64,000 bases of DNA from Candidatus Omnitrophota bacterium (GTDB taxonomy: Bacteria; Omnitrophota; Omnitrophia; Omnitrophales; Aquincolibacteriaceae): contig JAKLFP010000005.1 in NCBI GenBank assembly GCA_022711115.1, positions 8,572-72,571 on the forward strand. Direction: 5' to 3'. Positions 639 through 44,924 of this stretch are shown here, in pieces. The notes beneath the pieces are model-generated. The model made no database searches, was not told where the DNA came from, and worked only from the letters and a program-made list of their open reading frames with translations. Both the position numbers and the translations under genes were made by a program. Numbering within the stretch: position 1 is the stretch's first letter; every line of letters begins with the position of its first letter.

Positions 639-1703
639 TCATTTTGTCATACCTTCACGCATTGCCTCGTCCAACTCTTCTGAAGTAATCACATATTTTT
701 TGAGTGCGCGCGGGGTTTTTTCCCAAAGGGCATAGGGAGTAGCGATAATGACTTCCTGGGAAGGGTCCAGCGTCGACAAGCGCTCCATGGAAAAATTCTC
801 CTGCCGGATGTTGTCCGGCAAAGCGAGAGGCGAGCGGTAGATCCGATCGCGCCAATCTTGCACCGTGCTGACCATGGCCGTATGCTTCTTATTTTTAAAA
901 TAATCTCGGTTTGCCATAAAAACAGAAAGCGGCATTTTGGAATAAATTTGTACGTGCTGGTTCTGTTTTTTGAGTTTTCTCCGGGTCATGGCATCCCGAG
1001 ATTTTTCAATCATGGTGATGGCTTTCGAACTGACTCTTACCACCTCCCGGTTGATCCTTTTGAGTCCCGCGGATATTTGCCAGCGAAAGTAACCCATGCC
1101 ATCCGCAACGTAGCCGAGACTTTTCACGCGAACCGGTTTTTTGCTGAGAGAAGACGCTCCCCAGTTGATAGGAGACATAAAAGCTTTGTCTATGTCATAC
1201 AGGATGTCCTCGAGCAAAACAACCAACAAATAAGCACGGACTTGCATTAATGGAGTGACCCCGCCCAGGCTGTCACCCCCTATGACTGAATTTGCCAAAC
1301 GGGCATCGGACAGCGAGATTTGACGCAGTTGTAAGGCGTCCCAAAATTGGCCGAAACGCCGCACCGGTTGAACGCGTGGTAATCGAGAATAAGCGTACTC
1401 AAGCGAATCGAGCGATTTTGAAATAGGGCTTTTGTTATTCCTAGCAATCAGTCCGATCATCCCGTCACCCAACCGCACAAATTCCAGTTCCGTGAAAGCG
1501 AAAGCGGAAGCGGCGATATTGTGAAGGTCTGTATCTTTTTTATAATCATGGACCGTCATAGGATCCGTCCAGAAAAGATCTTCCGACGAATCCTTGACAG
1601 GGGATGCCACAAGCGTCGTGGAAACAAAACAGATAAATCCGAACGCAATGATCCCTGCGATGCTTTTAATTTGCAAAAATCCCTCCGATGGGTTCCGAAT
1701 CAA
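639..1703 (-). CDS. hypothetical exported/membrane-anchored protein
   Basis: 354-aa ORF with an N-terminal hydrophobic segment (IAGIIAFGFICFVSTTLVASPV). It overlaps the stop of the upstream minus-strand phosphodiesterase gene by 38 nt, which suggests co-transcription. Confidence 0.5.
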   Translation of the reverse strand: MIRNPSEGFLQIKSIAGIIAFGFICFVSTTLVASPVKDSSEDLFWTDPMTVHDYKKDTDLHNIAASAFAFTELEFVRLGDGMIGLIARNNKSPISKSLDSLEYAYSRLPRVQPVRRFGQFWDALQLRQISLSDARLANSVIGGDSLGGVTPLMQVRAYLLVVLLEDILYDIDKAFMSPINWGASSLSKKPVRVKSLGYVADGMGYFRWQISAGLKRINREVVRVSSKAITMIEKSRDAMTRRKLKKQNQHVQIYSKMPLSVFMANRDYFKNKKHTAMVSTVQDWRDRIYRSPLALPDNIRQENFSMERLSTLDPSQEVIIATPYALWEKTPRALKKYVITSEELDEAMREGMTK

Positions 1704-6842: not shown

Positions 6843-7748
6843 GTGGAAGATTATCGCATAAGTAAGCTTCGTCTTCTTGAGGCCGAAAGTATTCACATTA
6901 TTCGTGAAGTGGCCGCGTCTTTCGAGCGTCCCGTCATGCTCTATTCCGTTGGGAAAGATTCCTCCGTCATGGTGCGGCTGGCCCAGAAGGCTTTTCATCC
7001 CGGCAAACTTCCATTTCCTCTTCTTCATGTGGATACCGGCATGAAATTCAAAGAAATGTACCAATTCCGGGATCGGTTCACGAAAGAAATCGGAGCGGAA
7101 TTGCGTGTCTATAAGTTCCAGAAGGCCATGGACCAGGGAACTAATCCGTGGGATCTCGGGACAATCCAATGCTGTGCCCTTCTTAAAACCCAGGCCCTTT
7201 TGAATGCCCTTCAAGAGGGAGGGTATCAAGCCGCGCTTGGAGGTGCCAGGCGGGATGAAGAGAAATCCAGGGCCAAAGAACGTATTTTTTCTTTCCGGGA
7301 CGAATACGGGCAGTGGAATCCCAAGAACCAGCGTCCCGAGATTTGGAAGCTCTATAACACCCTGGCTGGCCAGAAAGAAAGCATCCGCGTTTTCCCGTTA
7401 TCCAACTGGACAGAACTTGATATCTGGCAATATATTCATCTTGAGAAGATCCCTGTGGTTCCGATGTATTTTGCCAAAGAAAGAGAAATGATCCTGCGCG
7501 AAGGGCAGCTGATCCCGCTGGACGGTCCTGTCCCTCTGAGGGAAGGGGAAAAACCCCAAAAGGTTCTTTGTCGATTCAGGACATTGGGCTGCTATCCCTG
7601 TACGGGTGCGGTCCGTTCCGCGGCTGCCACAGTGCCCGAGATTATAGAGGAGATCATGACCGTAAAAAATTCCGAGAGAATTACGCGCCTCATCGATCAT
7701 GATCAGGATTCTTCCATGGAACAAAAAAAGAAGGAAGGATATTTCTAG
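6843..7748 (+). CDS. cysD: sulfate adenylyltransferase subunit 2
   Basis: PAPS-reductase-like fold motif [12 protein letters not shown] and overall CysD-like length and sequence. Its stop overlaps the start of the next gene (TAGTG). Confidence 0.9.
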
Positions 7749-9679
7749 TGCCGCAAGGGGCCAAGAGTGTTCACACAATTCTTGAGCAAAGCGAAAAAGC
7801 GGATCTTCTCCGTTTTACGACCGTAGGAAGCGTGGATGACGGAAAATCAACGTTGATCGGGCGATTACTCTATGAAGCGGGGGGACTTTATGAGGATCAG
7901 CTGGCTGCGATTCGCAAAGACTCCGGGAGATTCAAGCGCGAAGAGTTTGACCTCTCGCTTGCCATGGACGGCCTGAAGGCTGAACGGGAACAGGCAATCA
8001 CCATCGATGTTGCTTACCGTTATTTTTCCACGCCGAAACGCCACTTTATCATTGCCGATACGCCGGGCCACGAACAGTATACGCGCAACATGGCGACAGG
8101 CGCCTCCACGGCCGATCTGGCGATCATCCTGATTGATGCCTGCCACGGTGTTTCCATTCAGTCCAAGCGTCATGCCTTTATCGCTTCGCTTCTCGGTATC
8201 CGGCATATGGTGGTGGCCGTCAACAAAATGGATCTTGTGGATTATTCCGAGGAGGTTTTCCGGAAAGTTGAAGAAGATTTCAATATTTTTGCTGAAAAGC
8301 TGAGAATTTCCGACCTCATGTTCATACCGATCAGCGCGCTGAAAGGGGACAATGTCGTTAAAAAAAGCGGAAACACTCCCTGGTATGAAGGATCGGCCCT
8401 GTTGTCTCATCTTGAGACTGTTCATGTCCAAAGTGACCGGAACCTGATTGATCTGAGGTTCCCAGTGCAATATGTCCTGAGGCCGGACCGAAATTTCCGG
8501 GGATATTGCGGACAACTTGCCGGAGGAGTGCTGCGCAAAAAAGACGAAGTACTGGTTTTGCCTTCTTTGAGGAAAACGCACATTCGATCCATCTCTACCG
8601 GCGAAAAAGAAGTGCCTTATGCCTTTGCGCTTCAATCCATCACCGTGACACTTGAAGACGAAGTCGATGTGACGCGAGGCGATATGGTAGTTCACTCAGG
8701 GAATCTGCCGAAGATCCAGCGTGAAACGGATGCCATCCTCGTGTGGATGGATGAAAAACCCTTAAAAACGGGAGAGGTTTATCTGATCAAACATACCACG
8801 CAGCTTCTCAAAGGGACGGTTGCGCATCTTCATTTCAGCATTGACCCGGATGATCTGAAGCGAAAAAAGGCCAAAGAACTGAAGATGAACGAAATCGGCA
8901 GGGCGACGGTTCAGTTTTTTCGGTCTGTTTTCTGCGATGATTATGCGAGGAACCGTGAAACCGGAAGTTTTATCATGATCGATCCGGTGACCCATGCGAC
9001 TGTGGCCTCAGGAATGATCATCGAGAGAGGGCATCTTCCTTTGATGGCCAAACCGGATGAAAAGGCCTCGGTCAAAAGTCCGTTTCTGCACCGGCAGGAA
9101 GGGATCATATCTCTCAAAGATCGCAGCCGTTTATTGCGCCAAAAACCAGCAACGCTATGGATGACCGGCCTGAGCAGTTCGGGAAAATCCACGATTGCTT
9201 TTGAACTGGAAAAAAGGCTCATGGCTGAAGGTCGCTTGTGTTATGTTCTCGACGGTGACAATGTCCGTTATGGATTGAACCGTGATCTCGGATTTTCGCC
9301 GCAGGACCGGAGCGAGAATATTCGCCGCGTAGCCGAAGTTGCGAATCTTTTTAACGAAGCCGGCGTGATTGTGATCACAGCTTTTATTTCGCCGTACCGG
9401 GAAGACCGGGCACAGGCAAGAAAGATCATCGGGGCTGAACGATTCATCGAGGTTTTCGTGGATGCGCCGGTCGAGGTTTGCGAAACAAGAGATCCCAAAG
9501 GACTTTACAAAAAAGCGAAGAGGGGAGAGATTCCGGAATTTACAGGTGTGAATGCTCCCTATGAAGTGCCGGAATCGCCCGAGGTCCATCTGAAGACCGG
9601 AGAAGAAAGTACGGATCTTTCCGCGGGAAAAGTTTACCAGTATTTGAAGGAACGCGGGTGTCTGGAGGCCTGCGAGTAA
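7748..9679 (+). CDS. cysNC: bifunctional sulfate adenylyltransferase subunit 1 / adenylylsulfate kinase (CysN-CysC fusion)
   Basis: N-terminal GTPase motifs (GSVDDGKSTLIGRL, DTPGH, NKMD) as in CysN. The C-terminal domain has the APS-kinase P-loop LWMTGLSSSGKST and CysC-like motifs (DGDNVR, FISPYREDR). Confidence 0.9.
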   Translation: MPQGAKSVHTILEQSEKADLLRFTTVGSVDDGKSTLIGRLLYEAGGLYEDQLAAIRKDSGRFKREEFDLSLAMDGLKAEREQAITIDVAYRYFSTPKRHFIIADTPGHEQYTRNMATGASTADLAIILIDACHGVSIQSKRHAFIASLLGIRHMVVAVNKMDLVDYSEEVFRKVEEDFNIFAEKLRISDLMFIPISALKGDNVVKKSGNTPWYEGSALLSHLETVHVQSDRNLIDLRFPVQYVLRPDRNFRGYCGQLAGGVLRKKDEVLVLPSLRKTHIRSISTGEKEVPYAFALQSITVTLEDEVDVTRGDMVVHSGNLPKIQRETDAILVWMDEKPLKTGEVYLIKHTTQLLKGTVAHLHFSIDPDDLKRKKAKELKMNEIGRATVQFFRSVFCDDYARNRETGSFIMIDPVTHATVASGMIIERGHLPLMAKPDEKASVKSPFLHRQEGIISLKDRSRLLRQKPATLWMTGLSSSGKSTIAFELEKRLMAEGRLCYVLDGDNVRYGLNRDLGFSPQDRSENIRRVAEVANLFNEAGVIVITAFISPYREDRAQARKIIGAERFIEVFVDAPVEVCETRDPKGLYKKAKRGEIPEFTGVNAPYEVPESPEVHLKTGEESTDLSAGKVYQYLKERGCLEACE

Positions 9680-10593: not shown

Positions 10594-12321
10594 ATGGAAC
10601 GTATACTTCTGATCAATCCATCAGGTTGGCAGAAGGAGAGCATTAATTTAGGACTCTCCTATTTAGCTTCTTCTTTAATGGCCCATGGGTTTGATGTGCT
10701 CATTCTTGATTTGAATCGTTATGAAATGAGCGATGCCGCATTCTTGGAAAATGTCCGTCAGTTTAGTCCTCGTTTGGTTGGAATATCCATAAAAACTGCA
10801 ACAGCACGAGAAGGGGGGCGACTATCGCGACTCCTGAAGGAAGCGATGCCTGAAGTGATTACCGTTGCTGGCGGACCCCACATGTCTCTCTGCCCAGAAT
10901 CTTATATGCGAGATTATCCTTCCATTTCTTTCGGTGTTATGGGGGAGGGTGAGGAAGCTATGGTCCATTTAGCCAAAGCAATATGCAATGGCGGAAAAGT
11001 GGAAAAACTCAACGGGATCGTATGGAGACAGAACGGTCAAATTCTCCTCAATAAATGGATGCCGCCGGAGAACCTCGATGCTCTGATGTTTCCCAACCTT
11101 GATGTGATTCAGGGGTTTAGTTGGAAAAATTTTCGCTACCCAATACTTTCCAGTCGAGGTTGTCCTTTTGGTTGTATTTATTGCTGTGTGAATAAGCTGA
11201 CTGGTTCCAGAAAGTGGCGTTACCGTACTCCGGAAAATGTGGTGGATGAACTGGAATCGCTTGTGCGAACGAAAGGCATCACTTCTTTTGAAATTTGGGA
11301 TGATAACTTTACATTGGACTTGTCGCGTGCGAAAAAAATTTGCCAATTACTTATCGATCGCAAGCTTAATTTATCCTGGTACTGCCATAATGGAATCCGG
11401 GCCGACCGCATTGATGAAGAGCTGGCTCAAATGATGAAAGCGGCGGGTTGCACAAGCCTGGCTTTTGGCGTTGAGAGCGGAAGTCCTGTCACCTTTGCCG
11501 CCATTAAAAAGGGAGAACCCCTTTCCGCAGTCATTAACGCTGTGAAATTAGTCAAAAAGGCCGGTATCAAAGCCGTTGGCTATTTCATCATAGGACTTCC
11601 TGGGGACACTTTGGAAAGGTTTGTTGAAACGGTTTATTTCCAACGATCCCTCGAGTTGGATCATTATGTCTACGGCATGCTCATCCCTTATCCCCATACG
11701 GAACTCTGGGAAATAGTACAAACTCATGGAACTATGTTCTGCGAAATTACCGAAACACAACACTTCAGCGATGACATGGTTCCAATCTCGTTTGAGCTGC
11801 CAGATTTTCCGAAAGCCGATATGATTCGAGCGTTCTATATTGCCAAATATTTCGACTTGTTTGATGCAATCCGGCAGGTTGCTGACAGCGTCAACCTAAC
11901 CGTGGTCCATCATGTCTCTCCTCCCATGATAAGTCATCTGCCGGGCATGTTTATTGCCGGAGGCTCGAAAATTTGCCATGTAGTCGTTGGCGGGGATGAG
12001 GCTGTTGTGCGGGCACTGCCTTCTTTCACGCAGGTACCAAACACAACCAAAATATTATTTTCTGATAACATGCCTTCAGACATTCCTTTTGAAAATCAAA
12101 TAGCTGTCGTCGATCAAGGCTCTAATATATTGGAACGCATTTCTCCCGATTCCGGCCTTGTCTTATTCGATGCGAGGCGGCCGCTTCGTCATTTGACTCT
12201 AGTGCGGCTTCCCAAGGCTGGATCTTTGGGTGCGCGCGGAGCACCTGACAGTGATTTGAAAAACGATGAAAAGAAGAATGTGTTTTCCAAAGCACTGGAT
12301 GCTTTGGGTATTCATCCATGA
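10594..12321 (+). CDS. B12-binding-domain radical SAM protein (copy 1) with C-terminal extension
   Basis: N-terminal Rossmann-like cobalamin-binding region (ILLINPSGW ... VAGGPH). The radical SAM cluster motif is CPFGCIYCC, followed by a glycine-rich SAM motif. About 175 aa of unassigned C-terminal tail. Confidence 0.8.
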   Translation: MERILLINPSGWQKESINLGLSYLASSLMAHGFDVLILDLNRYEMSDAAFLENVRQFSPRLVGISIKTATAREGGRLSRLLKEAMPEVITVAGGPHMSLCPESYMRDYPSISFGVMGEGEEAMVHLAKAICNGGKVEKLNGIVWRQNGQILLNKWMPPENLDALMFPNLDVIQGFSWKNFRYPILSSRGCPFGCIYCCVNKLTGSRKWRYRTPENVVDELESLVRTKGITSFEIWDDNFTLDLSRAKKICQLLIDRKLNLSWYCHNGIRADRIDEELAQMMKAAGCTSLAFGVESGSPVTFAAIKKGEPLSAVINAVKLVKKAGIKAVGYFIIGLPGDTLERFVETVYFQRSLELDHYVYGMLIPYPHTELWEIVQTHGTMFCEITETQHFSDDMVPISFELPDFPKADMIRAFYIAKYFDLFDAIRQVADSVNLTVVHHVSPPMISHLPGMFIAGGSKICHVVVGGDEAVVRALPSFTQVPNTTKILFSDNMPSDIPFENQIAVVDQGSNILERISPDSGLVLFDARRPLRHLTLVRLPKAGSLGARGAPDSDLKNDEKKNVFSKALDALGIHP

Positions 12322-22618: not shown

Positions 22619-22734
22619 GAGTTTTGAGGCCGAAATTTCGGGGGTTTTCTGAGTGAAAATTATCATAAAGTATGTTGACGAAATTTTAAAAAGAAAACTA
22701 TCTGTTTGAGCTTAACGAAGCGGGGAACCATCCA

Positions 22735-24858
22735 GTGATTTCCGGAAATTTAGATTTTTTAAAGGCATTAAAACGGCAAGAAAAATGGTTGTCAGGGATT
22801 GTCTTATGCGGGGTCATTTTTTTAATTTGGTCCTGGGTACATAGCCGTACTTCGATGGTCGCTTGGCAAACACCGCTGCGTTATGAAGGGGGGAAAGATG
22901 TTGCATTCGTTCTAGCTTATGCAAAGGCATTCATGGATGGTGATATTTTCCCTGTTTTGTCTAAGTGGGTGTCGCATCTGAATGCCCCTTTTTCTGCCAA
23001 TTGGAACGACTATCCTGTAACGGATGAATTTATCTACGCAGCCATGGGCTGGATTGGTAAGGGGATAGGCCTTTTCCCAGCGGCTAATCTTATGGTTCTT
23101 TTGGCGCATTTATTGACGGGGCTATCCTTCTACTACGTGGGCAGAAAATTAAAATATCGTCTTGCCTTTGTCTTCGCGGGCGCCGTTCTGTTTACTTTTT
23201 TCCCTTATAGTTTCCCACACAATTTAGTAAATATTATGTATTCCTATTACGGGCATATACCGTTAATGTTGCTAGTGAGCTGGTGGGCCTTTTCATCGAC
23301 GACGCCCCAAATTAAGAGCCGAAAATGGTCCATAGCGGTTGTCATTGCTGCGATCTCGGGCACGTTTAATGTATACTACACAGGAATGTTTCTGCAGTTT
23401 CTCGGATTTACGGTGTTGCTGCATCTTGCCAGGAAGGAGTATCGTCTCATCACCTTTCCCCTATTGTTGATCGGAGTCACTGTGGCTAGTTTTCTAATTA
23501 TGAATGCTGATACTCTAAGCTATACATGGTTTCACGGACAAAACCCTCAAGCCATTGTTCGTAACTTGACATCTTTGGATAAATTTGCCTTAAGGATTCC
23601 CTCACTGGTATTTCCTCAAGATCATCACCGTTGGCATGCTTGGGCTGAATACGGGCAGAGCCATTACTTTATTCCCACAATGATAGAAGGGGAAAAAAAG
23701 GGGGGGTATCTTGGTTTGGTTGGGTTGGCTGGATTGATGTGGCTGACGGGAACAAGTTTGTTTCGCCTCCTCCAAGGTAAGTTGAACCTGATTCCTATAC
23801 ATGCATGGCAAATCCTTTGGGTTTTGCTGTTTTCTCTTGCGGGTGGCATTAATCTTCTTTTAGGGACATTCGGATTTGTTTTATTTCGCTGTACGTTTCG
23901 GTATGGCCTTTTCATATTCGCTCTTGTTTTATTATTCTTAGTACGCCAACTCTCTCGGAAATGTTCCCCCAAATGGACTATACCCTTAGCATGTGGAATT
24001 ATCGTTATTGGCTTATGGGATCAATTACCTCCTAAAGATTCACCGGCCGAAATTCAACGCATAGCTAATTTTATGAAATCTGAACGTAATTTTTCAAAAG
24101 AATTAGAAGCGCAATTACCTCAGGATTCGATGGTATTCCAATTGCCTGTTGTCGCCTTTCCAGAGACTCGCCCCATATATCAGATGACTGATTATGAGCA
24201 TTTTAGACCATATTTGTTTACACGACACCTGCATTACTCTTATGGTACTAATAAGGGCCGGCGTGATGCCGATTGGCAAGTGGTGGTCAATAAATTAACT
24301 CCAGCAGATATGATTGCTAAACTAGAATCTTATGGATTTGGCGCGATTATCATTAACCGCAAGGGATATGAAGACAAAGCTGTACAGTTACTTGAGGGCA
24401 TAGTCGCTACGGGTCGGTCCATCATTGCGGATAACGGTGAATTGGTTGCGATCAAATTAAAGCCTATGGCAAAGCCGATTCTTCCAGAGATACCCCCGTT
24501 TTATAGCACTGGCTGGTCGTTAGATGAGGGCACTCACAGATGGGCCATCTCAAGGCATGCCGAAATCAACATTTTTAATAATGACAAAAAACCAAAGCAG
24601 GTAACTATAAAATTCGCCTTAATCACTTTAAAACCGAGAAATGTACGAATCGGAATTAATGGTACAACATTACAAACTGCCTCGCTAGACAACACTAATG
24701 CAAAGCCATATTTTGAATTGGTATCCGTAACCTTGAATCCTGGTGGAAATTCCTTGTTTATTGATACAGATGTCCCTCCTCAATATCCGGGGAATAATGA
24801 TTCGCGTAAAATATCCTTTGGAATTTCTGGTTTTATGATTAAAGAGTACCAAACATGA
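22735..24858 (+). CDS. large polytopic membrane protein with C-terminal soluble domain (GT-C/YfhO-like architecture), function unknown
   Basis: 707 aa with about 12 TM segments in the first roughly 430 aa, then a soluble domain of about 270 aa. Putative GTG start. Confidence 0.5.
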   Translation: MISGNLDFLKALKRQEKWLSGIVLCGVIFLIWSWVHSRTSMVAWQTPLRYEGGKDVAFVLAYAKAFMDGDIFPVLSKWVSHLNAPFSANWNDYPVTDEFIYAAMGWIGKGIGLFPAANLMVLLAHLLTGLSFYYVGRKLKYRLAFVFAGAVLFTFFPYSFPHNLVNIMYSYYGHIPLMLLVSWWAFSSTTPQIKSRKWSIAVVIAAISGTFNVYYTGMFLQFLGFTVLLHLARKEYRLITFPLLLIGVTVASFLIMNADTLSYTWFHGQNPQAIVRNLTSLDKFALRIPSLVFPQDHHRWHAWAEYGQSHYFIPTMIEGEKKGGYLGLVGLAGLMWLTGTSLFRLLQGKLNLIPIHAWQILWVLLFSLAGGINLLLGTFGFVLFRCTFRYGLFIFALVLLFLVRQLSRKCSPKWTIPLACGIIVIGLWDQLPPKDSPAEIQRIANFMKSERNFSKELEAQLPQDSMVFQLPVVAFPETRPIYQMTDYEHFRPYLFTRHLHYSYGTNKGRRDADWQVVVNKLTPADMIAKLESYGFGAIIINRKGYEDKAVQLLEGIVATGRSIIADNGELVAIKLKPMAKPILPEIPPFYSTGWSLDEGTHRWAISRHAEINIFNNDKKPKQVTIKFALITLKPRNVRIGINGTTLQTASLDNTNAKPYFELVSVTLNPGGNSLFIDTDVPPQYPGNNDSRKISFGISGFMIKEYQT

Positions 24859-25051
24859 GAAGATGGAAAACCGTAATATCAATCAAAAATAATTGAAGCT
24901 TCTGTAATGCTCCCCGTTAAGCAAGAGTGAAAAACTGTAGAACCGAGCTCGTGTTTTGGTGGGGCTATAAATGTGTAATTGATGAATAAACATATAGCGG
25001 CAAAAAAAATAATCCTAATAATTTTTTTGAATATAGCATTAATATTGGGTA

Positions 25052-32601: not shown

Positions 32602-33100
32602 AATTCCGCATCAAGCTTCTCAATATTCCACCTTCTGGTTGTTCCTTATTTGCAAATATTACTGAAACACAAAATTCAACTCACCTTCGACATCATCTTT
32701 TCGATTAGAACAAACGAATAACAAATTTTCGCATTTTCGTGTTCGAACTTTTATTTTTAAAATCATTGCCAAAGCATATCTTTTTTCAAAAATACATTCT
32801 GTTTCACTGATTTTGATCGATGTAAATACAACTCAATCCAATCCAATACCAGCCAAAAACCTGCCGAGTTTACTTATTCTCGAAAAAGAAATATGAAACG
32901 TTTTTGTTCAATCATTCTTTAAAAAAGAGAAATCTTAAAGTATTTTCAAGTAAGGCTAGTTCCTGCTATATTCTGCTAGAAAGAACTTTCTCGGATGTCC
33001 TGGTCTGTCCCGGTCTGTCCTATTGTAGTAATTTCATCGATTGTTTATACTTCCTCCGTATTGAAAAAATTCGAATTACTAACTGAGGGGGACTCATCAC

Positions 33101-34003
33101 ATGAAAAAACTAATCATCATTGGCTTTATAATGCTTTCGTTTGTACCGGCGGCCTTTGCCGTTACGGTTCTTCCTGATCCTTCGACGACATACGATGGAC
33201 TTCCGGTGGCCTTACCCTATGATCAGTTTTTTTCTTACTCAACGAAATTACTTACCCAATTCGGTTATTCAGGATTTACCAATGCGGCGGGCGTCGGAGG
33301 ACTCGATGTTGTGCTTCTTACGCAGGCCGGCGGTATCGACAATGATCCTGTAAACGGAAGTTTTGTTTTTGAGGATCCCCAACCTTCTGCTACCGGTGGC
33401 ACGGACACATTGTCAGGCACATGGGGCGCTGGCAATGAAGCTCACGGCCCTGTACTTGTCGATAATTTGGTCGGATATTTGCATAATCAATTTGGTCCCA
33501 CCAATAATATCCCGGTATTTACTTTTGATATAGTAGAGCCGGGCAACGGTGATCCATTTTCTGGAATCCCGATTCCTCCAAGTCCGATTGATTTACAAAT
33601 GGTAGCAAAATTTAGCGTTTATGATCCTGTCACTAAAACGGACAAAGCAATTTGGTCGCTTGACGGTATCAACAATGGCTCATGGGATCCCAATGATTTT
33701 ATTACTGTTCACGGAAAACTATCGTTTCAAGGACTGTCCGGCACTGTTTATACAGCAGACAATACAGGGTCGGGGAAGTACGATTTTCTTGTCTATGCTC
33801 CGACCATGGATCTTAGCCAGTATACAGGGAAGGGGTATGAATTTCATATTAACACCCAAATGAAACTTTTGGATGGAGGTGGGGAGGAATCTTTTATTTC
33901 GGGTGCTTTTACGACCGGTAGGACGGTCACTCCCGAACCTGCAACTGTTCTTCTCCTTGGGACAGGTCTGTTAGGGTTAGTGATCAGGCGCAGGCTTTTC
34001 TAA
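33101..34003 (+). CDS. PEP-CTERM sorting-domain secreted protein
   Basis: Signal peptide, then the C-terminal PEP-CTERM signature VTPEPATVLLLGTGLLGLVIRRRLF (PEP motif, TM helix, Arg cluster). The gene follows a roughly 500-nt AT-rich leader. Confidence 0.8.
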   Translation: MKKLIIIGFIMLSFVPAAFAVTVLPDPSTTYDGLPVALPYDQFFSYSTKLLTQFGYSGFTNAAGVGGLDVVLLTQAGGIDNDPVNGSFVFEDPQPSATGGTDTLSGTWGAGNEAHGPVLVDNLVGYLHNQFGPTNNIPVFTFDIVEPGNGDPFSGIPIPPSPIDLQMVAKFSVYDPVTKTDKAIWSLDGINNGSWDPNDFITVHGKLSFQGLSGTVYTADNTGSGKYDFLVYAPTMDLSQYTGKGYEFHINTQMKLLDGGGEESFISGAFTTGRTVTPEPATVLLLGTGLLGLVIRRRLF

Positions 34004-34247
34004 AACCGCTTAGTTTTTTCAGCGTTACAGTATCCTCATATCACTCGCCATACTCTTTCCTGACAGAGTGTTTCCTTTCGCGGGATTATTCCCTTCATAA
34101 AATATGTAAAGACACAGACCTTTGTCGAGATCCTTGCCTTAGACAGGAAGCTTCTTGTCGACAAATACTTCAGCGAGGGAAATTAAAACTTTTTCAAGAA
34201 TGGTAATAGCGCGCTTCTAAAAGGTAGCGACTGTGATTCAAAGAGGA

Positions 34248-35132
34248 TTAGCTGCTATTTTTGGAAAGAATGAACTGGATAAAGGCCTGAGCGGCGGAGC
34301 TCATTTCCGCATTCATTCTTGTTGCGATGGCCAGGGGATATTCCCAGGAGCTTTGCGGAACTGAGATTTTCTTGATTCGCTTTAATTCCACTTCTTTTTC
34401 AACCGCTATCTCTGGAACAATCGCAATACCCAGTCCGCTCTCAACAGCTTGTTTCATGCTTTCAACTTCATCAAAAACATGAACGATATTAGGGCGAATA
34501 CCCATTTCATTTAAGAGTTGATCGATGACCTTGCGTGCCGGCAGAGTTTTATCAGGGAAAATAGTCGGATTTTGAAAAAGCCTACTCAGACCCGATAAGG
34601 TGGAAGCATAGCGCGGGTATGTTGGGGGAGTGATGATAGCAAGTTTGTTTTTTTTGAATATTTGAAGCTTTATTTGAGGATGTTTTTGAGGAAAAGCCAC
34701 AAGCGCCAGGTCTGCTTTATCGCTTAAAATATGCTCATAAATATCAGGCATCTTGGCATAAGTAATGTTGATATGGATTTTGGGATATTCCTGCATAAAG
34801 GGGCCGGAATAAACGGGCAATTCATGTATTCCCACGGTGATGCTCGTGGCGATTTGGATCGGCCCGGCAATTTCAGCGGAGTCTTGCGCAAGCGATTTTC
34901 TAAGCCTCTCATAATCACGAAGAATAGCGATGCTTGTTTTATAAACCTTTTTTCCTGCTTCCGTAAGCTGGATGGAGCGCCTTGCCCGGTTGAGGAGGCG
35001 GTGGCCGAGATTTTCTTCCAGAGAACGTATATGATGACTGACGGCGGATTGGGTAATGTAGTTGATTGAGGCTGCTTTGGTAAAACTGCTCATTTTTACA
35101 AGGTCGCAAAAAATTTTCAAAGAATGTAACAT
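34248..35132 (-). CDS. LysR-family transcriptional regulator
   Basis: N-terminal wHTH (FTKAASINYITQSAVSHHIRSLEENLGHRLLNRARR) and a LysR substrate-binding domain. I chose the start at 35132 (MLHSLKIF) because a GAGGAA RBS lies 7 nt upstream; the ORF track extends to 35168. Confidence 0.85.
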   Translation of the reverse strand: MLHSLKIFCDLVKMSSFTKAASINYITQSAVSHHIRSLEENLGHRLLNRARRSIQLTEAGKKVYKTSIAILRDYERLRKSLAQDSAEIAGPIQIATSITVGIHELPVYSGPFMQEYPKIHINITYAKMPDIYEHILSDKADLALVAFPQKHPQIKLQIFKKNKLAIITPPTYPRYASTLSGLSRLFQNPTIFPDKTLPARKVIDQLLNEMGIRPNIVHVFDEVESMKQAVESGLGIAIVPEIAVEKEVELKRIKKISVPQSSWEYPLAIATRMNAEMSSAAQAFIQFILSKNSS

Positions 35133-35253
35133 GAGAAATTCCTCATATGAGTAATAAATATTATTCATTTACTTTATACATCGAACTGTGCCATAATGCA
35201 ACCCTTAAATGGGCAACTCAAAAGCTTTCTGCAGTTCTAACCAGGAGGAAATC

Positions 35254-36261
35254 ATGAAAAAAGTTTTGAGTTATTTTGTCGTCTTCTCCCTTCTTGTAGG
35301 TATCCCCCTATTAACCTCTTCTACGTTATCGTATGCCGCCGAAACAAATCAGAATAGCCAGTATGAAAATGACCTTGGAGGATTGGGTATCTGGAGCATG
35401 ACCGGAGGCGGGCATGCGGATCAGAGAGAAAATAAAGGTTACAAAGCCTTTCAGGACAATACACTGGTAACGTCAGCAGGGTTTGACAAGATCGTGACCC
35501 CGCATGTTCGTCTTGGGAGCTATTTCGGGTACGGGTATTCCAATAAAAATTACAAAGTGAATATGCCCGGGTATGGAAGTTACGGATTGAATGACGATGC
35601 GTTCAGTGTGGTAGGGACAGTGACTTACGATTCGATCAATCTTTGTGAATCCCGATCAAGGGGGAAGTATTCGCCCGAAGCGGTTCGGAATCAAGGCATT
35701 GACGGATGGTATGTTGATAGCGCTATGGGATTCACCCAGCATAACTATGATCTGCGTACGGAAAGGTTCAATGGCGCCCTTGCCCCCAATCTGGAGGTTG
35801 GAAAAGGTGATGATCACGGGCAGGAATATTTCGTCGGGTCAGAAGCAGGATACATCTACAATACGGGCAAGGAGAACACAATTCATATTACCCCCTTTAC
35901 GTCCTTGTCATATGATCATCTCTATAAAAATGTGCTGAAAGTCAAAGGTCTGGGCGTCAATGACTACAAGCTCAAAGAGGGGGGATCCAATAGTCTTGAG
36001 CAAGGCTTTGGCGTCAAACTCGCCAAGTCGCTTGTTTCCGAGAAAATGGGTACTTTCATCCCTTATGTTAAAGCCGAGTGGTTGATCGATTATATTCACG
36101 ATATCCAGAGCCAGAATAGACAGAGGAACACCGGAGTGTTTGGAGCCGGGATCATCTTTCTGAGCAAAGGGCACATGACCTGGTCGGCCAACTGGGATAT
36201 GGACATTCAGAACAGGAATTTTGGAAATGTCGGCTACGGAAAAATCCGGTATGATTTCTAA
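35254..36261 (+). CDS. outer-membrane beta-barrel protein (autotransporter beta-domain/OMP-like), divergent from the LysR gene
   Basis: Signal peptide (MKKVLSYFVVFSLLVGIPLL), alternating beta-strand pattern, and a C-terminal aromatic residue (IRYDF). Start taken at 35254 with an AGGAGG RBS. Confidence 0.55.
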   Translation: MKKVLSYFVVFSLLVGIPLLTSSTLSYAAETNQNSQYENDLGGLGIWSMTGGGHADQRENKGYKAFQDNTLVTSAGFDKIVTPHVRLGSYFGYGYSNKNYKVNMPGYGSYGLNDDAFSVVGTVTYDSINLCESRSRGKYSPEAVRNQGIDGWYVDSAMGFTQHNYDLRTERFNGALAPNLEVGKGDDHGQEYFVGSEAGYIYNTGKENTIHITPFTSLSYDHLYKNVLKVKGLGVNDYKLKEGGSNSLEQGFGVKLAKSLVSEKMGTFIPYVKAEWLIDYIHDIQSQNRQRNTGVFGAGIIFLSKGHMTWSANWDMDIQNRNFGNVGYGKIRYDF

Positions 36262-36300: not shown

Positions 36301-37776
36301 ATGTTTCACTCTAAAAAATTCATGAGTGTTCTCGTTTTGCTGCTTGTCGTCGGTACGGCGTTTGTGATGTCGGGCTGTGCGACTTGCTGCGGCGGCCCCG
36401 CTCCCGTGAAAGCCAGCAAGTGTGCGTTTGGGGTTCAAGGGTGCGATAAAGGTAACAGTGCCATCTGGATCGAGAAATCGATGCCGGAGCAGGTCGTTGT
36501 CGGGAAACCCTTCGAGTACACCATCCAGGTGACGAACCTGAGGTCGTGTGCGTTGGAGGATGTGGCAATTAGTGAGAGAGCTTCAGAAGGGCTTACGATT
36601 CAGTCAGGTGAAGCGGAATTGAAGATCGGGACTATGAAGCCGCATGAGGTGCGTCAGATTAAGATGACCGCTGTTGCCAATGCGGGCGGGACTCCCTCGA
36701 CTTGCACTAAAGCGGATTACAAACCCGTGCTTTGCTGCGGGTTGGAAGCGATTTCACCGAGTTTGAAAGTTGTTCTTGAAGCGCCGAGTCAGGCGTTACT
36801 CTGCGATCTCATTCCCGTGAAAGTAACGGTGACGAATACGGGTACGGGCAATGCGCAGAATGTGAAAGTAACACAAGCTTTACCTCAGGGATTGACCACG
36901 CATGATGGAAAGACATCCCTTGTGATGGATGCGGGGACACTTGCAGGTGGGGCTTCCAAGAGCTATACAGTAAACCTGAAAGCCGCACAATCGGGTGATT
37001 ATAGTAACAGCGCTTCAGCGGCTGCCGCGAGTGGTATTACGGCCGCTTCAGGAGCTGTGACGACTTCCGTTGTGCAGCCTGTGCTCAAGGTTGGCGTTTC
37101 TGGTCCAGGCAAGATTTTTGTGACCAAAAATGCGGATTTCAAGGTTGATGTTCAGAACACCGGAAATGCTGATTCTGCAAACACCACAGTGATGGCGACC
37201 ATTCCCGCGGGGATGAGGTTTGTTGGCGCCTCCAACGGTGGTGCTGTTTCTGGTAATTCGGTGGTTTGGAACATCGGGACGTTGCCTGCCGGCAAAGGTG
37301 CTACTCTTGACATGACCTTCAATGCTGTGTCGGGTGGAACGGGAGAAAGCATTGCCAGAGCCACGGGTACTTGCTGCCAGGAAGCAAATGCAGCAGTCAA
37401 ATCCGATGTCGAAGGAATCCCGGCGATCCTGCTGGAGGTTGTTGATACGGAAGATCCTATTCAGGTTGGTGCGGCGGAAAAGTATTACATCACGGTTACC
37501 AACCAGGGATCTGCTCCGGATAACAACATTGTCGTGAAAGTGAATTTCGAAGACAATCTCGACTATGTGTCTTCTTCCGGTCCGACCCAAGGTCAGTCCG
37601 GGGATGTCAAATCAGTCGCATTTGCTCCGTTAGCAACACTCGGAGCTGGCCAAAGGGCAACATGGGAAGTGACTGCGAAAGCGGTCAAAGAAGGGGATCA
37701 TCGCACGACGGTTGTTATGACGAGCGATGTGATCAGCCGGCCGGTTCAGGAAACGGAAGCGACTCGAATTTACTAA
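36301..37776 (+). CDS. lipoprotein with DUF11 (conserved repeat domain, OmcB-like) repeats
   Basis: Lipobox VMSGC, then repeated blocks of about 110 aa of the type (Y/F)TI(Q/T)VTN-G ... NxV as seen in DUF11/CARDB-like repeats. Several paired cysteines (CCGG, LCCG, GTCCQ). Confidence 0.6.
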   Translation: MFHSKKFMSVLVLLLVVGTAFVMSGCATCCGGPAPVKASKCAFGVQGCDKGNSAIWIEKSMPEQVVVGKPFEYTIQVTNLRSCALEDVAISERASEGLTIQSGEAELKIGTMKPHEVRQIKMTAVANAGGTPSTCTKADYKPVLCCGLEAISPSLKVVLEAPSQALLCDLIPVKVTVTNTGTGNAQNVKVTQALPQGLTTHDGKTSLVMDAGTLAGGASKSYTVNLKAAQSGDYSNSASAAAASGITAASGAVTTSVVQPVLKVGVSGPGKIFVTKNADFKVDVQNTGNADSANTTVMATIPAGMRFVGASNGGAVSGNSVVWNIGTLPAGKGATLDMTFNAVSGGTGESIARATGTCCQEANAAVKSDVEGIPAILLEVVDTEDPIQVGAAEKYYITVTNQGSAPDNNIVVKVNFEDNLDYVSSSGPTQGQSGDVKSVAFAPLATLGAGQRATWEVTAKAVKEGDHRTTVVMTSDVISRPVQETEATRIY

Positions 37777-43989: not shown

Positions 43990-44111
43990 GACTAAGCGCC
44001 ATTCTTGGCATCAGCAAAAGATAATCCCGCAAAGCGCATGATTTTGGTTTGCATCCCTCAGGTGATGAGAAGAGCAAAGTTGCTTGGTCAATGGAGCCGT
44101 CTGTAAAGCCT

Positions 44112-44924
44112 ATGGGGAATAAAAAAAGGGCGCATCAAGCGATAGCCGTATTCCTTTGCCTTTCCCTGGGGATGGCGGGTTGCGCGGTTTTAAAAACAGA
44201 TGAGTATGCCCAATTTGGGTACAAAGGCCAGGCTGAAACGAAAGAAGGCCAAAGAGTTCTGCCGATTGATTGGCTCGGGAATTTTTTTGGAGCTTTTTCA
44301 AAATTGATTCTCTGGAATTGGAAAGTAGACCGCCATCATATTCAGGCAGATACCCAAGAAGTGGTGGCCCAATACCTACGAGCTCACGAAGATACGCTTG
44401 GAAATGTTTTGGTTCAGTTGAACCGTTATGCCCCTCAGGATTCCTGGGGACGTCTTTTTCAAAATAAGGGAGTCCAATGGCCGTATCGGTATTTTTTGGG
44501 GATTTTCAGTGTTTTAATTTTGGATACGCTCCTGCCTGGGCGCATCTTTGGCGGTGATCGATACGATCCTTTCACGCATACAGTCCATCTTTACTCTGAT
44601 CTTCCCTCGATCGCTCTGCATGAACTTGGCCACGCGGAGGACTTTGCAGAACGCCGTTACCGTGGCTCTTACGCCTTATTCCGGATCGTGCCCTTTGCCG
44701 ATCTTTATCAAGAACGTAAAGCTACCGATTTTGCCTTTCAGTATGTCCGTAGTGAAAAAATGTATTCCACCGAAATCGAGAGTTATAAGGTGCTCTACCC
44801 GGCGTATGGAACCTATGTGGGCAGTTATCTGTTTTCTTTTGGAATCGTAGCTCTTATTGTGGGCCATATCTGGGGGAGATCGGAAGCTCACGGGCTGGAA
44901 AAACGCATTGCCATAAAGGCATAG
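44112..44924 (+). CDS. putative lipoprotein with HExxH (zinc-metallopeptidase-like) motif and C-terminal TM segment
   Basis: Signal/lipobox-like GMAGC, the motif ALHELGHAEDF, and a C-terminal hydrophobic segment. The start is uncertain; the ORF track begins at 44049. Confidence 0.4.
   Translation: MGNKKRAHQAIAVFLCLSLGMAGCAVLKTDEYAQFGYKGQAETKEGQRVLPIDWLGNFFGAFSKLILWNWKVDRHHIQADTQEVVAQYLRAHEDTLGNVLVQLNRYAPQDSWGRLFQNKGVQWPYRYFLGIFSVLILDTLLPGRIFGGDRYDPFTHTVHLYSDLPSIALHELGHAEDFAERRYRGSYALFRIVPFADLYQERKATDFAFQYVRSEKMYSTEIESYKVLYPAYGTYVGSYLFSFGIVALIVGHIWGRSEAHGLEKRIAIKA

Follow-up and report, generated by a model that had tools for sequence, protein, structure and literature searches.

How is the gene of a surface protein that is probably destined for exosortase processing controlled, and how is its product sorted, where the surrounding DNA encodes no exosortase? 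This question is raised by a PEP-CTERM gene (33101..34003, plus strand, 300 aa) in contig JAKLFP010000005.1 of a Candidatus Omnitrophota bacterium (NCBI assembly GCA_022711115.1); the whole stretch of 64,000 nucleotides (nt) that was analysed is referred to below as the window, and related loci are referred to by their numbers (L001 and so on). The encoded protein is identical to HOW58358.1 of a Candidatus Omnitrophota metagenome-assembled genome (MAG), annotated as 'PEP-CTERM sorting domain-containing protein'. Its sorting signal, the stand-alone gene and the extended non-coding stretch before it are all standard for the PEP-CTERM system. We favour, with a probability of roughly 60%, the reading that the locus is a monocistronic gene whose DUF8239-family product is a surface or matrix protein sorted by exosortase, and that this gene is under the control of an operator made of phased TGTCC boxes and of a sigma-70-type promoter. 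New here are a specific, conserved cis-element for the control of a PEP-CTERM gene outside Proteobacteria, and a family in which orthologs use either sigma-54 promoters or the array together with a sigma-70-like promoter. The TGTCC boxes offer a handle for finding the regulator of the exosortase system in an uncultured phylum.

A phased TGTCC array upstream of the gene

The 499-nt gap upstream of the gene (32602-33100) has a GC content of 33.5%, as against 46.2% in the window. The initial annotation had pointed to a tandem direct repeat about 90 nt before the ATG as a candidate regulator-binding site, and the repeat is indeed found 81-99 nt 5' of the ATG as two exact copies of GGTCTGTCC (33002-33010 and 33012-33020). 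No further exact copy is present in the 64 kb and copies with one mismatch occur in the window at chance level (9 versus 8.4 expected), so that the tandem arrangement, not the word itself, is the signal. The tandem forms part of a set of three regularly spaced TGTCC boxes (Table 1), which we propose as an operator. The window and 18 related loci, together about 279 kb, were scanned on both strands, as was L019 in addition, and the three-box array was found only upstream of genes of this family, the chance expectation being 0.12 per 64 kb. Exact TGTCC-N5-TGTCC pairs number 7 in 250 kb (both strands) versus 0.65 expected, each copy lying upstream of a family gene or, in L019, before the gene of an exopolysaccharide (EPS) priming glycosyltransferase, and the heptamer GTCTGTC occurs six times in 3.25 kb of family upstream DNA versus 0.05 expected. 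The array-bearing loci differ in their neighbours (for example, PHO4/PhoU, a cyclic nucleotide monophosphate (cNMP)-binding protein, FecR and exosortase), and thus the conservation of the array is not explained by shared synteny. In the sister-strain contig L001, which is syntenic with the window, the alignment bin that holds the array is 100% identical to the window, while adjacent leader DNA is 72-77% identical. Conserved in the orthologous leaders of six lineages, the repeat stands as a good candidate for a regulator-binding site, and the array appears from these comparisons to be a conserved, gene-family-specific control element. A search of the window with the array profile gave no other significant site, so no further member of a regulon was seen there. 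To our knowledge, the TGTCC core matches no known operator.

Another block of the upstream region, at about 32790-32880, is 90-97% identical to the sister strain in 30-nt bins, versus 57-83% in the flanking leader. Neither an RNA family match nor a significant fold was obtained for it, and other orthologs lack this block.

Two promoter types in one family

A sigma-70-type promoter is predicted directly downstream of the array (Table 1), with its TTGTAG hexamer starting 2 nt after the last TGTCC box. The layout of array, 2 nt, TTGTnn, 17 nt and TAT(A/G)CT recurs in the window, L001, L006 and L015 despite unrelated spacers, with 25 nt between the array and the -10 element in all of these, and the window and L001 share both hexamers, the substitutions between them being confined to the spacers. 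On the basis of this conserved promoter, transcription is predicted to start near 33058, which would leave a 5' untranslated region (UTR) of about 43 nt, at odds with the 500-nt leader of the initial annotation; most of the 499-nt gap is probably untranscribed. No significant RNA structure was found in the predicted 5' UTR (z = +0.5).

In the PEP-CTERM box of Haft et al., a sigma-54 -24(GG)/-12(GC) element precedes the start codon by about 70 nt (PMC1569441). Such GG-N10-GC promoters are present in six orthologs without the three-box array (L003, L009, L010, L013, L018 and L020), 58-90 nt before the ATG and matching 8-10 of the 11 consensus positions. None was found in the window (300 nt upstream), L001, L006, L016 or L017; L015 has only a poor match (6/11) far upstream, at -154, and sigma-54 consensus matches in the window leader need three mismatches and lack the GG. 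L019 has both elements, with the array about 135 bp upstream of the sigma-54 promoter TGGCATAAGTCTTGCT. In the L019 region 10938-11277, past the terminator of the ortholog, there is a further TGTCC-N5-TGTCC pair (10997-11011). It is followed after about 250 bp by another sigma-54 promoter, TGGCACAGTGTATGCA (~11262), which precedes the EPS priming glycosyltransferase gene. The word thus marks two promoters of the L019 exosortase locus, which ties it to the exosortase regulon and makes the NtrC-family regulator of L019 one candidate binder.

A further tandem direct repeat, two copies of CCGATTTAAGG, precedes the sigma-54 promoter of the L018 ortholog by about 150 nt (~7220-7250) and may be a different enhancer word.

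A probable exosortase client in a window without exosortase

The protein carries sorting signals at both ends. Its hydrophobic N-terminus, MKKLIIIGFIMLSFVPAAFA followed by VTVLPDP, is a predicted signal peptide with an AxA site that is conserved throughout the family, residues A20, L24, P25 and P27 being invariant or nearly so in family alignments. The C-terminal end, VTPEPATVLLLGTGLLGLVIRRRLF, has the layout VTPEPA, TVLLLGTGLLGLVI, RRRLF, that is, Pro-Glu-Pro, a hydrophobic helix and a basic cluster, with P278, E279 and P280 invariant in 21 homologs. The PEP-CTERM assignment made in the initial annotation is upheld by two models, PF07589 (28 bits, cut-off 20.7, residues 277-298 of 300) and TIGR02595 (22.6 bits, cut-off 16), both over their curated cut-offs, and this tail is the only one of its kind in the 64 kb.

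The initial annotation had also stated that no exosortase is present in the 64 kb, and both searches made for one agree: a Pfam scan of all 47 window open reading frames (ORFs) of at least 150 aa gave no match to Exosortase_EpsH or EpsI, and a hidden Markov model (HMM) built from 120 Omnitrophota exosortases gave zero matches in the window, though it found the exosortases of related loci. Look-alikes of PrsK, PrsR and PrsT are likewise absent from these 47 ORFs. Two membrane ORFs (22735..24858 and 44049..44924) belong to no family, and the exosortase HMM matches neither. In the window the PEP-CTERM gene thus stands not beside exosortase and EpsI, but between a TatD gene upstream and a LysR gene downstream. 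This is not anomalous, as most PEP-CTERM genes are scattered single-gene units: more than 65% form an operon of one gene, preceded by over 200 non-coding nt (Haft et al., PMC1569441).

In L003 (Omnitrophica RIFCSPLOWO2_12_FULL_44_17; 61% identity), the ortholog stands immediately behind Exosortase_EpsH and EpsI, and in L019 (49% identity) it likewise directly follows exosortase and EpsI in a locus that also encodes an EPS priming glycosyltransferase, a TPR protein, a GAF histidine kinase and an NtrC-family sigma-54 activator. The DUF8239 family is therefore probably a genuine exosortase client. The exosortases of L003 and L019 pass TIGR02602 (148-157 bits, cut-off 105.55) and fall below the cut-off of the XrtA model (168-172 bits, cut-off 208). 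Such exosortases are common across Omnitrophota: a search with a relative's exosortase as query gave 455 matches, none of them on the contig that encodes HOW58358.1. Cluster look-ups for 20 candidates yielded no HOW accession, and the exosortase of the source MAG was not located.

The mature part contains 13% Gly, 10% Thr, 8% Asp and 5.5% Asn, has an isoelectric point of 4.1 and lacks Cys altogether. It is thus Gly/Thr/Asp-rich; of the 'Gly/Asn/Asp-rich' body described in the initial annotation, Gly and Asp hold, while the share of Asn is unremarkable and Thr takes its place. Two AlphaFold models were made, with predicted local distance difference test (pLDDT) scores of 84 and 90, and both were run through Foldseek against the PDB. 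The AlphaFold2 model of the mature domain (41 homologs; pLDDT 89.6, predicted template modelling score 0.89) is a beta-sandwich with two short helices. The fold search gave only weak look-alikes among jelly-rolls and carbohydrate-binding modules (best E 6e-3, template modelling score at most 0.26), a sequence-profile search against PDB sequences found no solved relative, and NCBIfam matches to the PepA, THxN and XDP1 families were driven by the tail and far under the respective cut-offs. The models thus suggest a non-enzymatic beta-sandwich that is structurally unmatched in the PDB. Together with the signal peptide and the sorting tail, this fits the structural or surface-coat role put forward in the initial annotation, and a structural, glycan-associated role by analogy with PepA (PMC9850573) is our best guess.

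Proposed mechanism and its alternatives

We hypothesize that the array is bound, head-to-tail on one face of the DNA, by a transcription factor devoted to it, most probably an activating response regulator. The boxes would be centred near -60, -50 and -40, the classic activator position on one helix face, and the weak sigma-70-type promoter (TTGTAG, 17 nt, TATACT) would start transcription about 43 nt 5' of the ATG. In this lineage, the array and the sigma-70-type promoter would replace the sigma-54 promoter used by most orthologs. We consider two candidate binders, a winged-helix protein of the OmpR/PhoB type and the NtrC-family regulator encoded in the exosortase loci of relatives. As direct repeats in helical phase are seen more often with regulators of the OmpR/PhoB type, we do not settle on either family. 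The product would be exported by Sec, with the signal peptide cut after AFA, and then held in the inner membrane by the PEP-CTERM helix, until an exosortase encoded outside the window cuts it at the PEP motif and it goes to the cell surface or the sulfated glycan layer. A wider view, which we hold only tentatively and consider rather doubtful, is that the array is the site of an undescribed regulator of the exosortase/PEP-CTERM regulon in Omnitrophota, that one family switches between sigma-54 and sigma-70 promoters while keeping the operator word, with L019 as the combined state, and that the product is a structurally novel, strain-diversifying surface protein which, in bacteria as small as these, might mediate cell-cell or host contact.

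Several observations weigh against the favoured reading. An alternative, extended -10 promoter-like site was found by promoter scan upstream of the array at 32943-32972 (TTTTCA, 18 nt, TGcTATATT), and if this is the real promoter, the array falls in the 5' UTR. L013 and L018 carry a single GTCTGTCT between the sigma-54 promoter and the ATG, a position less suited to an upstream activator than to a role as repressor or at the RNA level; these copies and the site at 32943-32972 therefore keep such a role alive. L016 and L017 lack the clean geometry of TTG, 17 nt and TATRCT, and caution is due with the neighbour-joining tree in which orthologs of the array type and of the sigma-54 type are intermingled, since it carries no support values. 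As to the regulator, no response regulator is encoded among the 47 window ORFs, no DNA-binding protein co-occurs with the array across the array-bearing loci, and NtrC-family proteins usually bind dyads rather than direct repeats. Processing of the product is inferred from relatives, since the exosortase of the source genome was not found.

Control at the RNA level is the alternative that survives best, and we consider it unlikely. Transcription would start near 32979 and the GUCUGUCC repeats, lying in a 5' UTR of about 120 nt, would be the target of an RNA-binding protein or of a small RNA, with control exerted on translation or stability. The promoter-like site at 32943-32972 is conserved in L001, the single GTCTGTCT of L013 and L018 would be transcribed given its position downstream of the sigma-54 promoter, and the L019 array could be co-transcribed with exosortase and EpsI. 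However, the strict 10-nt phasing is a property of the DNA helix, and the fixed distance from the array to the -35 and -10 elements in four sequences would be left unexplained. Folding of the leader gave no significant structure (z of -0.4, -0.4 and +0.5) and an Rfam search of it returned only noise, on which grounds a riboswitch or structured leader was rejected. The promoter-like site is absent from L006, L015, L016 and L017.

The known paradigm for such genes is sigma-54 transcription, as in Proteobacteria and for pepA (PMC1569441, PMC9850573), with the repeat here serving as the enhancer for a PrsR-type activator, one of the binders proposed in the initial annotation. Seven orthologs, L019 and the six named above, have good sigma-54 promoters, and in L019 the TGTCC repeats lie upstream of two of these, beside an NtrC-family regulator. 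For the window copy this canonical control is not supported, because the GG-N10-GC promoter is absent: the sole GG between the array and the ATG is that of the Shine-Dalgarno sequence, and AGGCTAGTTCCTGCT, the closest look-alike, is spaced by 9 nt and located upstream of the array. In addition, the published motif 1 ends in TTTACA rather than TGTCC (PMC1569441), and the look-alikes in L019 stay under the cut-offs of the PrsR (389 versus 502.6 bits), PrsK (94 versus 300) and PrsT (50 versus 312) models. We therefore regard canonical control of the window gene as quite improbable.

Even less credible is a coincidental membrane anchor, that is, an organism without exosortase in which the protein stays in the inner membrane. 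It would agree with the lack of an exosortase in the 64 kb and of one tied to the source MAG, and with the TatD gene that precedes the PEP-CTERM gene where relatives have exosortase and EpsI. PEP motif, helix and basic cluster are nonetheless conserved family-wide, including the three invariant residues, orthologs adjacent to exosortase occur in two lineages of a phylum with 455 such exosortase matches, and PEP-CTERM domains co-occur with EpsH across genomes (PMC1569441). The visible part of the source, itself a MAG, is 64 kb.

The downstream LysR protein, also named in the initial annotation as a possible binder of the repeat, is a highly improbable regulator of the PEP-CTERM gene. In its favour are proximity and a gene pairing that is conserved in L001. 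Its gene is, however, convergent with the PEP-CTERM gene and only 40 nt from a divergent autotransporter/DUF11 operon, the usual arrangement of a LysR target; a LysR neighbour is found at none of the other array-bearing loci, bar the sister strain L001; and LysR proteins recognise T-N11-A dyads, not phased direct repeats. That the tandem repeat is a functionless product of chance duplication or slippage is scarcely credible and already contradicted by the comparative data, as the phased array, although short (19 nt) and made of 9-mers whose one-mismatch copies are at chance frequency in the window, recurs upstream of orthologs amid unrelated DNA and nowhere else in the flanking DNA examined.

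Comparison with known systems

Phased direct-repeat operators are known from the OmpR/PhoB family, such as those of CpxR (GTAAA-N5-GTAAA), ArcA (TGTTA repeats) and PhoB (the Pho box, CTGTCAT). These share with the array a pentamer core placed head-to-tail at one helical turn, whose two to three copies adjoin a weak -35 element or take its place, and by comparison the array has this layout, with three boxes at an exact 10-bp period ending 2 nt before TTGTAG. Unlike these operators, it has no OmpR-family gene nearby and is a putative site only.

With the PEP-CTERM/exosortase system described for EpsH and XrtA (PMC1569441), in which single-gene units with long upstream regions and dedicated cis motifs have been reported, the locus shares the single-gene unit, the long non-coding upstream region, the link to glycan genes and orthologs beside exosortase and EpsI. 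It differs in that exosortase, EpsI, PrsK, PrsR and PrsT are absent from the window, in that the proteobacterial upstream motif (motif 1 with its TTTACA end, and a sigma-54 site) is absent, and in that the related Omnitrophota exosortases pass the general 8TM_EpsH model but not the XrtA model. A PrsK/PrsR/sigma-54 region is a feature of the orthologs L003, L009, L010, L013, L018, L019 and L020, not of the window.

PepA of Zoogloea and Aquincola (NF033554), which ties exopolysaccharide to cells and is associated with flocculation (PMC9850573), is likewise a small secreted PEP-CTERM protein whose gene lies within or next to an EPS/exosortase locus and has its own regulated promoter, and a similar tethering of exopolysaccharide to cells is, by analogy, a plausible role for the window protein. 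In contrast to PepA itself, the window protein scores 33 bits on NF033554 against a cut-off of 80, over residues 207-298 only and mostly in the tail, and the window copy lacks the mapped -24/-12 promoter of the RpoN-dependent pepA (PMC9850573). ZepA, the Zur-regulated PEP-CTERM exoprotein of cyanobacteria (PMC10957091), offers a precedent, in that a family of PEP-CTERM exoproteins has a conserved upstream motif of its own and is served by a dedicated regulator other than PrsR and sigma-54. Its mature domain is unrelated, however, the match of the window protein to NF038125 (THxN) being confined to the tail (25.8 bits, cut-off 85); the ZepA motifs are palindromic, and the window protein shows no hint of metal binding.

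Family and gene neighbourhood

A word-indexed search found 67 homologs, mostly of about 300 aa, many of them with a precomputed match to Pfam PF26711 (DUF8239). An exhaustive profile search gave 132 clusters at E < 1e-30 and 309 at E < 1e-10, and besides Omnitrophota the family extends to Desulfovibrio, Desulfomicrobium, Acidobacteriota and Thermodesulfobacteriota. The PF26711 homologs have 53-64% identity to the window protein and align with it over the full length, although the precomputed listing covers most homologs but not the window protein itself.

Table 1. Positions of the gene features and the array, related genes at other loci, and identities to the sister strain (positions without a locus number are those of the window)
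Feature	Position or locus	Strand	Remarks
AT-rich upstream intergenic DNA	32602..32995	+	GC 30-35%; probably mostly untranscribed
Three TGTCC boxes, including the tandem GGTCTGTCC	32996-33000, 33006-33010, 33016-33020	+	10-bp period; proposed operator
Predicted sigma-70-type promoter	33023..33051	+	TTGTAG 33023-33028, 17-nt spacer, TATACT 33046-33051
Predicted short 5' UTR	33058..33100	+	Shine-Dalgarno GAGGGGGA at 33085-33092, 8 nt before the ATG
Sec signal peptide, residues 1-20	33101..33160	+	predicted cut between AFA and VT, then family-invariant LPDP; from family alignments
Mature domain, residues 21-275	33161..33925	+	acidic beta-sandwich (model), DUF8239 family; residues 61-220 hypervariable between sister strains
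PEP-CTERM sorting signal	33926..34003	+	VTPEPA, hydrophobic helix, RRRLF, stop codon; PF07589, TIGR02595
Array boxes	window and duplicate L005		TGTCC / TGTCC / TGTCC
Array boxes	L001, L002 (sister strain)		TGTCC / TGTCC / TGTCC
Array boxes	L006		TGTCT / TGTCG / TGTCC
Array boxes	L015		TGTCT / TGTCC / TGTCC
Array boxes	L016		TGTCA / TTTCC / TGTCC
Array boxes	L017		TGTCA / TGTCC / TTTCC
Array boxes	L019		AGTCC / TGTCC / TGTCC
Lipoprotein-like gene	L003 11001-11837; L016 2296-3102; L017 10920-11729; L014 ~830-1534		absent from the window
Small cyclic-nucleotide-binding proteins	L015 12241-12753; L016 721-1215; L017 7924-8412		none encoded in the window
Nucleotide identity to L001	from 35200 onward		mostly 96-100%
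Nucleotide identity to L001	TatD gene		~97%
Nucleotide identity to L001	glycan cluster		mostly 84-97%
Nucleotide identity to L001	PEP-CTERM gene body, 33200-33800 (L001 10100-10700)		57-66%
Protein identity to L001	signal peptide		100%
Protein identity to L001	residues 22-60		82%
Protein identity to L001	residues 61-220		50-61%
Protein identity to L001	residues 221-270		82%
Protein identity to L001	tail		93%

Upstream of the gene lies an ABC-transporter-type glycan cluster (5353-31687) with Wzm/Wzt genes and GT2 and GT4 glycosyltransferases. The cluster includes three sulfotransferase-like genes, a TauE exporter, a Wzy_C-type protein and three radical S-adenosylmethionine enzymes, of which two carry a B12-binding domain and the third a SPASM domain. 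Genes for the synthesis of 3'-phosphoadenosine 5'-phosphosulfate (PAPS) are found further upstream (a PAPS_reduct-type CysD, 6843..7748, and CysN/APS kinase, 7748..9679), and the product of the cluster appears to be a sulfated, methylated polysaccharide. The TatD-family hydrolase gene closes the cluster immediately upstream of the PEP-CTERM gene. Placement at the end of a glycan cluster, which the initial annotation took to fit the pattern of PEP-CTERM genes, holds in the window but not in most relatives, being true of only 3 of about 12 lineages; apart from L003 and L019, the orthologs have unrelated neighbourhoods and mostly long upstream gaps (145-653 nt across loci). Inside the cluster (22716-24967), ORF 22735..24858 (plus strand) encodes a polytopic membrane protein of 707 aa without a Pfam or NCBIfam match, which may be a glycan polymerase or transferase. 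L001 has no counterpart and carries 53 nt in its place, a strain-specific insertion or deletion.

Downstream, the convergent LysR gene (34248..35168, minus strand) encodes a full-length protein (HTH_1 68 bits, LysR_substrate 123 bits). An autotransporter beta-barrel gene (35209..36261) is divergent from it across the 40-nt gap and is followed by the gene of a DUF11/CARDB repeat protein (36301..37776); this operon is the more likely LysR target, rather than the PEP-CTERM gene.

Strain variation

The window and L001 differ sharply in the PEP-CTERM gene body (Table 1), with a breakpoint near 34080-34250 of the window, while the promoter-proximal leader, the signal peptide and the tail are conserved. 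Over residues 61-110, other species (80-82%) resemble the window allele more than the sister strain (50%) does. This pattern, in which conserved flanks enclose a divergent exposed core, suggests allelic replacement or diversification, as expected of a surface-exposed protein, and to the regulatory findings is thus added a hypervariable, structurally unmatched mature domain whose exposed core appears to be swapped between near-identical strains.

A 12-nt perfect inverted repeat around the coding sequence (33102-33113 and 34010-34021) was taken as chance because it is not conserved in L001.

Genes beside the orthologs

A conserved lipoprotein-like gene of about 270 aa without a family match directly follows the ortholog in four lineages (Table 1), and a tblastn search of the window for remnants of EpsI or of this partner lipoprotein was negative. 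Small proteins of 162-170 aa that consist only of a cNMP-binding domain, with a conserved C-terminal GG(Q/K)P(F/Y)xxxEG motif, are encoded near three array-type orthologs. In L008, from a Deltaproteobacteria MAG, a second ORF with a PEP-CTERM tail (ending in …PEPASLVLLGVGLAGAAFRRRRVRK; ~1420-1550) lies directly upstream of the homolog, and thus PEP-CTERM genes can stand in tandem in this locus.

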